Shown here one piece after another: positions 1 through 6,455 of a stretch of DNA of 64,000 nucleotides (position 1 is the first letter of the stretch; each line of letters opens with the position of its first letter). The position numbers and the translations under genes were made by a program. Origin of the DNA: Podarcis muralis. Its lineage: Eukaryota. The stretch spans positions 55,180,001-55,244,000 of the forward strand of contig NC_135658.1 of NCBI RefSeq assembly GCF_964188315.1, given 5' to 3'. A model generated the notes under the pieces. That model was not told the DNA's origin. It searched no databases and saw only the letters and a list, made by a program, of their open reading frames with translations.

Positions 1-30
1 CACGGCTAGATAACTGCCACCTGTACTCTT

Positions 31-61
31 GCGCAGCGGAAGCGTGCTGGGCCCATAACCC
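31..61 (-). promoter_or_regulatory. Primer-binding site of a Ty1/copia element, complementary to the 5' half of initiator tRNA-Met
   Basis: Plus strand GCGCAGCGGAAGCGTGCTGGGCCCATAACCC equals nt 10-40 of vertebrate tRNA-iMet (31/31 against the recalled sequence). On the minus strand it reads GGGTTATGGGCCCAG..., the hemivirus-type PBS, directly after the LTR end ...GCGACA. Confidence 0.9.
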
Positions 62-383
62 TGTCGCGTATTCCACGCGGCGCTTTCAGCGAGACACTAA
101 GAGTTCCAGGTTTTTCCAGTGCAGTCTTTTTTAATGTGAGCTATATACAGGCATTTACAAAAGAAACAGTCCATACAGAGTACTTACAAACGAATACTCT
201 CCACCACAGCACCACCACACTACAGCACAACCACCACACCTACTGTTAAACAGGCTTTCCTTTTAAAACAGGTGATAGCCAATCACACTAATCACACTCC
301 TGCTGAGTCACTCTGACCCAGCAGAGTATTGCATCATCCTGTTGAAGCCTGCAGACTTATCCAGTATCCTGCGAATCCCAACA
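62..383 (-). mobile_element. 5' LTR (322 bp) of a Ty1/copia retrotransposon whose internal region extends left of the window
   Basis: Minus strand begins TGTTGG (383) and ends CGACA (62), abutting the PBS. Contains ATTGG/CCAAT (279-283), TTTTAAAA (261-268), ATTAAA on minus (130-135) and AP-1 TGAGTCA (304-310). Confidence 0.85.
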
Positions 384-1980
384 GTGCTGTCATATATGGT
401 GTCAGGCCACAATTCAAGCCACAGCTGCTGCAAAGGAATCCTTGAAAGGTTGTTTCATAAGGTAGGGGCCACTACTGTGAAGGCGCTGTCCTCAGTACTT
501 GCCAATGCAACTGATTTTAAAGTACAGGCAGACATATATGGGCACAAGCAGTCCTTCAAATAACCTGTGTACCTATAACGTATGCATAGCCCTATTGGAA
601 TGAGAACTATCTGAAGAACTCATCTTACTGGTTTCATGTAAACATCTCATTATCATGTACTGTAAAATAATATGTTTAGTATTTTATCCCTCCTCTTCCT
701 GAGGCTCCTCTTTGTTTTGTTTTGTTAGTCATGCCATGTTTTTTTATTTATGTGTGTACAATTTTGTAAAAAGAAAATTAAAAAGAAAGACTGACAGACC
801 AGTTCAGGCCTGCACTGCTGCTCTATAAATATTAACTTAGCGCATAATCAGAGTTCATGGCCGGCTATTTCTTTCTTAAATCTGCTCTTTACTTTGATAG
901 CCCCCTTTGAGGTATTCTATTTCATCCTTTTTTACTGTACATGATGCAACATGCAGCACTTCCTCGAGCTGAAGACCAATTACCGGTACTCACCCTTGGA
1001 TTGACTTCAATGGTGTGATTCATTTGAATAAAGAACATCCCCTAATGGATGTTGGCATTCATGCCTTCCTCCTTTATGTTTCTGTAACTGAATTTATTCT
1101 GTTTTTTACCTATTGCAGCTGAAATCTGAAGAATCCCTCTGAGCTGCAGAGTGCATTCAAGGCCTACCTAACATGCCCTCTTCCCTATTAGCTAATCTGG
1201 CTGATACCTATTGCACAGTAATATCCGACTTAACCCACCTCCATCTCTCACCTGGGGGCAAAAAATTATTCTCCTGTTTCCTACCCAGGAAGGGCACAGT
1301 TCCACACTCTCACTCAAGGGATAGGAAACACTTCTCTTTTGCACTTCTAGAGGTGACTTCCATCCTCTCATACTGGAAGTGGTCTAGAGTAGGGAGGAAA
1401 TCGCATAATACTCCCCTGAGAGGGGAAAGTCCAGAAATTCAAATGCACAGTCATGCCCACTAAATTCAAAGGGGGTCCATCCTGAAGAAGTGACCCAAAA
1501 AAGATAGTCTTTTTGGTGTTCCCCCTTTGGCAGTGGTGTTGTGTCGGCTGCCAGGGTAAGGCGTGGGGCACTATACCAGCCCAACCCTTGCCACTAGAGC
1601 CAAGTGAGGCCATGCTGCACTGCCTGCCCATCCAACGCTGGCCAGACGGCTGTACAGTGAGAGAGCTGGGGACCCAGCAGCGAGGCCAGGCTAGGCTCCA
1701 AGCCCAGAGACCCCTGGCAGCATGCAGAGCAGGACAGAAATCCTGGTTTGTACCCCCTCAAAATTATGCACCCGGGGCTATGGTCCCCTGGCCCCTCCAC
1801 GCTATGCCCCTGCTCTTTGGATCACCTCTGAATGGTGCAACCTGCTGCCCCCAGCAGACTTGGCTTATATCCTCCCTTTCTCTATCCCCCATGCAAAGTG
1901 TACTGTCTTGTGGGAGTGTCCTGGACAGTTCTTGTTGCTCAGAGAGATGTATCAGAGTCTCAGTGGGGCCTAATCCTGAT

Positions 1981-4149: not shown

Positions 4150-4310
4150 CTATCTGACTTTCAGAAGATATCTGAAGGCAATCCTGTTTAGGGACGTTTT
4201 TAATGGTTGATGTTTTATTGTGCTTTTAATATTCTGTTGGGAACTGCCAAGAGTGGCTGGGGAAACCCAGCCAGATGGATGGGGTATAAATAATAAATAA
4301 TAAATAATAA

Positions 4311-4358
<48 letters not shown>
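4150..4358 (+). mobile_element. L2 LINE 3' end with (AAT)/(ATT)n tail
   Basis: atctgaaggcaatcctgtttaggga...gagtggctggggaaacccagccagatgg...gggtataaat followed by a long ATT microsatellite. Confidence 0.75.
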
Positions 4359-4359
<1 letters not shown>

Positions 4360-5054
4360 TGCACATGGCAGTCTGCATACCTGAGTACTAATACTTAACT
4401 GAGAATTTGAGCTACAACTCTTGGAGAAACTTGCTGCATTACTCTGAATATCCCTTCTTCCATTCATAGATCTGACCTTCAGCCATGAGATTTGGATCTC
4501 AATGGTTGGTTATGAATCACAAGATAATTAGAAGGAGGACATTTCCTAGCTTAAACTGTATGCATTTTCAAATCATTTGCTACCGAGTTCTGAGAAATCT
4601 TGAGAGCCCACTGCTCCGATTACATCAGTCAGACAGAAGGTCTCATTACTCAAAAGGCTGTGGGACCTGCCTGACCACAACTTTTCAAATCTGCTCACAA
4701 TGATTTCTAAAAGTAGATTTTGTTCCCATAATTATGAGACTTGGTTCATTGCAAATTGTTTACAGCTGAGTAAAGTCTAATTAGAATTGCAGCTGCTGGC
4801 TGGTCATCTCTTTTGTCAAATTTTTGGCTGGCTAATAGTCGGAGATAGCTTCATCTGAGATGATCAGTGGATGTTTCATCAACGGCTGCTAATGACAGTA
4901 GATGGTCTCCTGATAGCTGAGGATCTCTCTCAGTATTTGGAAATGGAATGAGATACCCATTAGAGGCTGGAGAGGTGACATGCCTCCAGCTTTTGAGAAG
5001 AAAGGTAAATTAGGCTGAGAGACAATGATGAGCCTAAGGTTACTCACCGTACCT

Positions 5055-5495
5055 TTGGGACTGCCACTCCTGGTATGCCCTGTGGAGGACCTTAAGGTCC
5101 ACAGATGACAACATTTTGGAGGTCCCAGGTCGTAAAGTGGTTAGATTGGTCTCAACTAGGGCCAGGGCCTTTTCAGTACTGGCCCCGACTTGGTAGAACG
5201 CTCTGTCACAATAGACTAGGGCCCTGCGGGACTTGACTTCTTTCCGCAGGGCCTGCAAGACAGAGCTGTTCCGCCTGGCCTTTGGTTTGGACTCAGTCTG
5301 ACCCTTATGTTTCCCTCCCCTTATGGTTTTGATTTATGGGCTACTTTTAAAATGAGGCTGCATTTTAAATTGCATTTTAACCTGTATTTTAAATTGAGGT
5401 TTTTTTCCTATTATGTTTTTACTGTAATTTTACTGGTGTTAGCTGCCCTGAGCTCGGCTCTGGCTGGGGAGGGCGGGGTATAAATAATAATAATA

Positions 5496-5537
<42 letters not shown>
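5055..5537 (+). mobile_element. L2 LINE 3' fragment
   Basis: Translates to a decayed ORF2 C-terminus (LRSTDDNILEVP...TRARAFSVLAPTW*NAL...FRRACKTELFRLAF), then a T-rich 3'UTR, gccctgagc...gggcggggtataaat and (AAT)/(ATT)n. Confidence 0.8.
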
Positions 5538-6455
5538 GAATGAATGAATAAGGATTTGAACCCAAAGTTTAGTCAACATGCAGCTAATACTACATCACCG
5601 TGGCTTGCCTTCACTTAGTGGGAATTTGCGCATTTAAAACAAACCGATGTGGATATTTTTGGATAGTTAAAGTGAGGAGTGTTGAGTTTAGATATTTCTT
5701 TATACCATACACACTTAGTAGAAACAGGATGGGGCATTTGAAGATGATAACCTGTGAAAATTACTACAACTATTCCTGCCACATATCAGAGACATATCAG
5801 AGTGTGACCACCAGTTCCTGTGCAGTAAACGGAACAGGAAGAAGGACCGACAAACCTAATCTCCACTTGCCGTGTTGTTTCTGATGCTCAGAGTTAAGGC
5901 CCAGCAGCTCTTGTTTCCCCTGATGAATTAGGATCTCTCCTTCCTTTGGATTGTCAAAAGCAAACATTTGGCTGACAAAGTCAAACACCATCATTTCCTC
6001 ATTAGGATGAAGAAAAATCGGTGCATTTCCCAGTTGCCTATTCCCCACTTAGAACTGCCATGCCACTGAACGGAATAACATTGTATTGCATAAAAGATAA
6101 GGAAGGAGAGCAGCTTTTATTAATTTTTAAAATCTACAATTATTCAAAATGACAATTGACTATAAGCCAAATAAGGAGAAATGGGGGGGGGGATTTGATG
6201 AGGAGTCAACTGAAGAATAGGTTATGTTCATTGTTATGTGTTATGGAGGGCTTCGGCAAGATCTAACTTAGTTTTAAAGAAACATTTGAAGTAGACTGGC
6301 CATAACACTTATCATAATGAAGAATGAATATCCAGCATGGCTTTCCCTTTCCCTTTTGTTAAAAAAACACCCCTATCTCCATGTTGCTCTCACAACTTAA
6401 ACTTGTGTATGTCATTTGCATCTGCCAGTATTTGTATCAAAAATGTCCAGTTATA

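Follow-up and report, generated by a model that had tools for sequence, protein, structure and literature searches.

The primer-binding site (PBS) of copia and Ty5 is 13–15 nt long, that of hemivirus-type elements is typically ~14 nt, and the internal PBS of Tca2/gamma elements measures ~32 nt. Among the elements known to be primed by half of a tRNA are copia, Ty5, Osser, and Bryco, as far as the available text of the relevant reports goes (PMC5371799, PMC6317226, PMC10886601). Candida albicans Tca2, a gamma LTR element, is described in the accessible part of one paper as having an “extensive” internal match to tRNA-Arg(UCU) (PMC4139406). In retroviruses, plus-strand synthesis stops at m1A58 of the primer, and a lentiviral primer over-extension sequence is described (PMC13191261, in part); renewal of the retroviral PBS leads to 50:50 inheritance of the tRNA copy (available sections of PMC13191261 and PMC7472051). 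According to the same portion of PMC7472051, HIV and MLV inherit the tRNA copy, whereas Ty1 (copia) and Ty3 are reported to inherit the PBS strictly and not the primer sequence. The available portions of PMC5445492, PMC7175516, PMC6894440, and bioRxiv 2024.01.30.575011 supply general background only. The ending of the plus strand and the restoration of the PBS in half-tRNA-primed elements are hard to study outside yeast. Our literature search, which lay outside the older key papers and supplements, found neither a 30–31-nt tRNA-iMet site ending at G9 nor inheritance of an isodecoder base in Copia elements, and long PBSs may be present in the supplementary PBS tables of PMC6317226 and PMC10886601.

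The sequence analysed here is a 64,000-nt stretch of genomic DNA, referred to as the window. The original prediction held that the window contains a perfect 31-nt match to tRNA-iMet nt 10–40 adjoining the end of an LTR. The match is exact at positions 31..61 (minus strand), where the DNA is the complement of host tRNA-iMet nt 40 to 10, i.e., of the anticodon arm and the whole D-arm; positions 62–66, which had been included in the predicted feature, belong to the LTR as its final 5 nt, and the PBS adjoins the LTR end …CGACA directly. The reference is a tRNA-iMet gene found by ARAGORN in the host genome itself (G000, locus L063), and tRNA positions are numbered sequentially unless marked as standard. 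The predicted lack of a match to nt 1–9 is likewise seen: the element base opposite tRNA G9, at position 30 (minus strand), is A where pairing requires C, and tRNA nt 1–8 are unmatched. The probability of any 31-nt tRNA match arising in the window by chance is computed as ~3e-14, and the 31-mer has 96 matches in the genome, namely 87 elements and 9 tRNA genes, compared to 0 for the reversed-pattern control. A tRNA gene or pseudogene at this place was considered and rejected, both Rfam and ARAGORN being empty across the window.

The element surrounding this site is oriented on the minus strand. Its 322-bp 5’ LTR (62..383, TG…CA) is identical to the 3’ LTR (322/322, L183) located left of the window, and it is flanked by a 5-bp target-site duplication (TSD) at 384..388 (plus strand; AGCAC on the element strand), the second copy of which follows the 3’ LTR. 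The 5’ leader occupies positions 1..29 (minus strand), the gag-pol ATG lying 53 nt past the PBS just outside the window (G000:C4). Left of the window, the element body continues with a single 1319-aa gag-PR-IN-RT-RH frame, a polypurine tract (PPT), and the 3’ LTR. Pfam assigns gag_2 (28–189), Pol_BBD (278–355), rve (464–563), and RVT_2 (840–1082) to this frame, RNase H being without a Pfam row. By its domain order, TG…CA LTRs, PPT, and 5-bp TSD the element belongs to Ty1/copia (Pseudoviridae), and its PBS is of the hemivirus type in that it pairs with the tRNA-iMet anticodon stem-loop beside the LTR and not with the 3’ CCA end. We confirm that it is a full-length young Copia element with a genuine, family-wide 31-nt PBS. 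The primer of the family could end at nt 40, or at nt 39 followed by a spacer G, which cannot be told apart from sequence because the spacer bases at this place vary among other Copia families. No unusual fold was found in the U5-PBS region (z −0.63). Elsewhere in the window, three similar short repeats with (TTA)n ends (2040–2130, 4230–4360, and 5430–5540), recognized by eye, are probably 3’ ends of a non-LTR retroelement.

We fetched 117 copies of the family, partly with patterns blind to the PBS (12 matches of one pattern are not among them), and aligned them to the host tRNA-iMet. The PBS is 31 nt long with A opposite G9 in 117/117 copies, in place of the ~14 nt of hemivirus-type priming, so its length neither varies randomly nor is mostly ~14 nt. 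A pattern combining the LTR end with the PBS core yielded 119 family matches; none has any base other than A opposite G9, so that 0/119 extend to that base. The predicted doubling of the usual length also stood, the other Copia families of the genome having ordinary 14–15-nt PBSs that end just before standard G26 of the tRNA. These short sites gave 294 pattern matches; of 30 inspected, 28 are short sites outside the long-PBS family. The family is very young, with mostly identical LTR pairs and a median distance between copies of 1.6%. Contigs of three other organisms span the same PBS, the main contigs without differences and one low-depth contig with one change. Four raw RNA runs gave thin coverage, with one haplotype dominant and reads mostly in what is likely the antisense orientation.

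Several features of the distribution of copies can be recorded here. One contig (G000:C20; 30 Mb, 2% of the genome) carries 24/117 of the fetched copies, many of them truncated, and is possibly a low-recombination or sex chromosome. A dense cluster of ~18 short-PBS Copia matches lies at G000:C4:1.46–4.5 Mb. An older, internally deleted relative (G000:C10:68866302-68872502, L129) has a diverged LTR and an identical long PBS, followed by 16 nt that are also identical.

Window position 40 (minus strand) lies opposite tRNA nt 19 (standard A20). The host has 9 tRNA-iMet genes with A at this nucleotide and 4 with G, the minor isodecoder. The element base is T in the window and in 104/117 copies, and C, which matches the minor isodecoder, in 13/117; the next commonest PBS variant occurs 3 times. 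The isodecoder base is the sole common variant among 25 non-CpG sites of the PBS, and it is not a CpG change. The normal PBS is predicted to pair with the minor tRNA by wobble about as well as with the major one (−71.8 vs −72.3 kcal/mol), and the C variant is predicted to pair less well with the major tRNA (−67.8 kcal/mol); consequently, selection does not favour the C variant. Its share is about 10% across five U5 groups (4/43, 3/29, 2/24, 1/10, and 3/11). On the LTR tree it takes 11 changes for 12 copies, with a mean of 11.6 when labels are shuffled and a median of 0.36 changes per copy for LTR control sites. The nearest neighbours L132 (C) and L166 (T) have a rare allele 40 nt away in common and differ in the PBS base. 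Decay of CpG sites in the PBS (5/582) is close to the post-insertion level (12/2538, p=0.34) and lower than at the other 140 CpG sites of the element (mean 4.7%, p=0.035), which fits selection as well as re-copying. Repeated copying of the PBS from tRNA is well supported, and its renewal in many cycles is likely. Among the over-copied tRNA halves in other families (see below), 24 extend past nt 19, and none of these carries the minor-isodecoder base (0/24), which counts against this reading. Genes for tRNA-iMet in which standard position 20 is G, where A is usual, form a cluster at G000:C2:115.74–116.19 Mb, together with two decayed copies (L084–L086, L097, L302, and L303).

Recombination limits what the scatter of the C variant can tell. 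Linkage in the internal region is lost beyond about 50–100 nt (L131–L247), and no site retains any across the PBS; 22/59 control sites are as unlinked as the PBS variant. Since control sites are equally scattered in the internal tree and the linkage tests, the scatter of the PBS variant cannot separate re-templating from recombination. With most LTR pairs identical, this loss of linkage points to template switching at a very high rate in a family that is very young. One alternative to repeated copying is that an ancestor took up nt 10–40 once, the site was afterwards inherited through the element RNA and kept by selection for stronger priming, and the isodecoder base stems from one further capture or a mutation that was spread by recombination. 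The very high recombination speaks for it, as do the polymorphisms that young copies often have in common with older ones (19/39), the large predicted gain in binding (−36.5 kcal/mol for the long PBS vs −5 to −17 for five short-PBS copies), and the precedent of strict PBS inheritance in Ty1 (PMC7472051, available part). L152 and L160, moreover, have one PBS change and a nearby rare allele in common, and this change seems to have been inherited through element RNA. We nevertheless consider such a single uptake unlikely: it needs the one common variant of the PBS to coincide with the isodecoder base and to persist despite its poorer pairing with the majority tRNA, and it leaves the nt-10 ends seen in independent lineages without an explanation. 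A C>T change opposite G10 was also considered as recurrent misreading of m2G10, an idea that was dropped given that the two copies with it carry the same nearby rare allele.

Evidence on where copying of the tRNA ends comes from outside the long-PBS family. A search for longer tRNA matches there gave 26 events, in which one pattern contributed 24 matches minus two tRNA pseudogenes, one unextended match, and one duplicate; L311 and L312 are a single locus, and L316 and L320 have flanks in common. The last matched tRNA base lies at nt 1–5 in 13 events, at nt 8–11 in 7, and at nt 15–20 in 6, and the corresponding numbers for the 20 events from a pattern blind to the far end are 9, 6, and 5. One of the searches constrained some positions, which affects the following two tests, both of them post hoc: 1) among 20 halves reaching nt 14, 7 end at nt 8–11 and 0 at nt 12–14 or 6–7 (p=0.003), and 2) A stands opposite G9 in 3/15 copies that pass G9, the other 12/15 reading G9 correctly, an excess over the ~4 mismatched bases among 237 non-CpG positions elsewhere (p=0.005, computed with 240). 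In 8 of the 26 events the half comes after a recognisable complete LTR from a short-PBS family and mostly leads into non-element DNA, as integrated plus-strand strong-stop DNA should; 6 of the 8 LTR-verified halves pass G9. LTR-linked copies of nt 39 to 1 occur in sister short-PBS families and show, at the level of sequence, that a 5’ half-tRNA primer was attached there. Integrated halves of this kind are direct DNA evidence for a half-tRNA primer in a vertebrate-type genome.

With 13/26 halves reaching nt 5 or beyond, G9 behaves in these genomic copies as a partial stop that leaves errors behind, not as an absolute block. In human tRNA-iMet, G9 is almost completely methylated to m1G9, and RT makes errors there at a rate of 0.1–0.2, according to the part of PMC7293042 available; the leaky stopping and the errors at G9 agree with this. 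The same source describes human m2G26 as only partial and invisible to RT methods. At window position 46 (minus strand), opposite standard G26, where the ordinary PBSs end, T replaces C in 3/117 family copies, and 7/26 over-copied halves have a mismatch; we do not claim these as a modification signal, as the element’s own next base may have been retained and human m2G26 is only partial.

Two loci are unusual in their arrangement. At G000:C8:1063851-1063937 (L311/L312), an LTR end is followed by two inverted copies of the tRNA-iMet 5’ half (nt 39 to 1) 7 nt apart, likely a snap-back or tail-to-tail product of reverse transcription, and a similar inverted LTR end with PBS is present at the metagenome locus L434. 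At G000:C12:7930954-7931099 (L248), a tandem 124-bp repeat contains an LTR end and a full copy of the tRNA 5’ half with errors opposite nt 10 and 9.

Long sites also occur in metagenomic elements. A scan for sites reaching nt 19 or beyond gave at least 119 loci, mostly tRNA genes, and the rest form 13 groups as judged by eye. Among the matches listed, 6/13 groups end at nt 9–11 (L354, L374, L384, L389, L427, and L429), two more (L342 and L330) may do so, five end at nt 15–19, and none of the 13 non-tRNA groups runs past nt 8. The host tRNAs of these elements are presumed to have G9-U8, which hardly varies among the tRNA genes that the scan returned. Copia gag is carried by L354, L374, and L384, and for L389 tblastn alone shows a remnant of RT/RNase H. 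A gag-protease tree was built from 11 natural frames of fetched loci (4/15 were excluded as too short); in it the window family groups with short-PBS families found in the same genome (98/99). An AU test rejects a common clade for the long-PBS elements (p=0.0024, with long branches present). The nt-10 boundary was thus either attained or lost on more than one occasion.

The recurrent boundary could instead reflect selection, if longer captures bring no benefit and disappear. Dead-end copies often reach nt 1 and the ORF-bearing families stop at nt 9–11 or earlier, and ordinary PBSs end at another structural hinge of the tRNA, G26, as this explanation would have it; it is also compatible with part of the model that we prefer. 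As a full account we judge it improbable, because an excess of ends at nt 8–11 and of A opposite G9 is still seen in the over-copied halves, which mostly run into non-element DNA, and because 0/119 family copies go past G10. That the extra 16 nt serve regulation, as a target of 5’ tRNA fragments or a decoy for them, is very improbable, for the site begins exactly at the LTR end as the short PBSs of the sister families do and a perfect silencing target would hardly be useful to the element, even though tRNA fragments, of the 3’ kind, target the PBSs of mouse ERVs (PMC7472051, in part).

The reading that we favour, with a probability of about 0.55, is as follows: the young Copia family is likely primed by the 5’ half of tRNA-iMet, likely with retrovirus-like inheritance of the primer; the attached half would be copied with a tendency to stall at m1G9, and the resulting 31-nt site would have been captured and is likely re-copied repeatedly. 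In steps, host tRNA-iMet cut at nt 39 or nt 40 would prime the minus strand, after which plus-strand synthesis would run on into the attached tRNA half. In short-PBS families the overhang would find no pairing partner and normally be lost, rare dead ends remaining. The ancestor of the long-PBS family would have captured a product stalled at m1G9, supposing that this species carries the modification and that it stalls synthesis, and the family’s own A opposite G9 may be a misreading error fixed at that capture. Later stalled products would be fully paired at second-strand transfer, with a putative advantage at the 3’ end, and tRNA sequence would reach the progeny as it does in retroviruses. Renewal from the tRNA pool would take place in a large share of cycles.

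The original prediction is thus partly supported. It was right about the origin of the site and about its boundary, and too strong in two respects. Regeneration of the PBS from tRNA finds support in the repeated copying recorded by the isodecoder base (13/117), and “each cycle” goes beyond this, as recombination erases the linkage test. A boundary set by m1G9 agrees with the recurrence of the nt-10 boundary in unrelated elements and with the near-complete modification of the human tRNA (PMC7293042, available part); the hard block that was envisaged does not agree with the halves that extend to nt 5 or beyond. A broader generalization, which we put forward tentatively and at less than even odds, is that in most cycles Copia elements with half-tRNA priming write their PBS anew from the tRNAs of the germline, and that PBS length evolves between modification-defined stops (G26, m1G9, and the tRNA 5’ end). 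If this were true, integrated copies would amount to a fossil tRNA-seq showing, for the cells in which elements transposed, their isodecoder usage and methylation, and the rule drawn from Ty1, under which primer sequence is not inherited by Copia elements, would be overturned. The genome provides a natural experiment that combines a long-PBS family with an isodecoder marker, short-PBS sisters, and integrated complete 5’ tRNA halves, making primer inheritance testable by sequencing alone.

In comparison with the known systems, the window family resembles Drosophila copia, Ty5, Osser, and Bryco in its Copia domain order, a PBS for the tRNA-iMet anticodon arm right after the 5’ LTR, and a 5-bp TSD (available text of PMC6317226, PMC5371799, and PMC10886601). 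Unlike hemivirus-type Copia elements, it has a PBS of 31 nt that extends over the whole D-arm, compared to 14–15 nt in its sister families. The nearest precedent for the long site is Tca2/gamma. Tca2 likewise has a long internal tRNA match beside related families with short matches, whereas its tRNA is a different one, tRNA-Arg(UCU), and the available text of PMC4139406 makes no link to m1G9 or re-templating. With retroviral PBS renewal, as described in the sources available, the family has in common a boundary at an N1-methylated purine (here presumably m1G9), tRNA variants in integrated copies, and a putative over-copying of the primer; it differs from retroviruses in that the element is Copia, the 3’ end of the primer is internal, the stop is at G9 and not at A58, and the stop is leaky. 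The findings in this genome suggest that m1G9 plays the part here that m1A58 plays for retroviruses, and that the long site is likely a form of hemivirus-type priming that is new in its combination with retrovirus-like primer inheritance.
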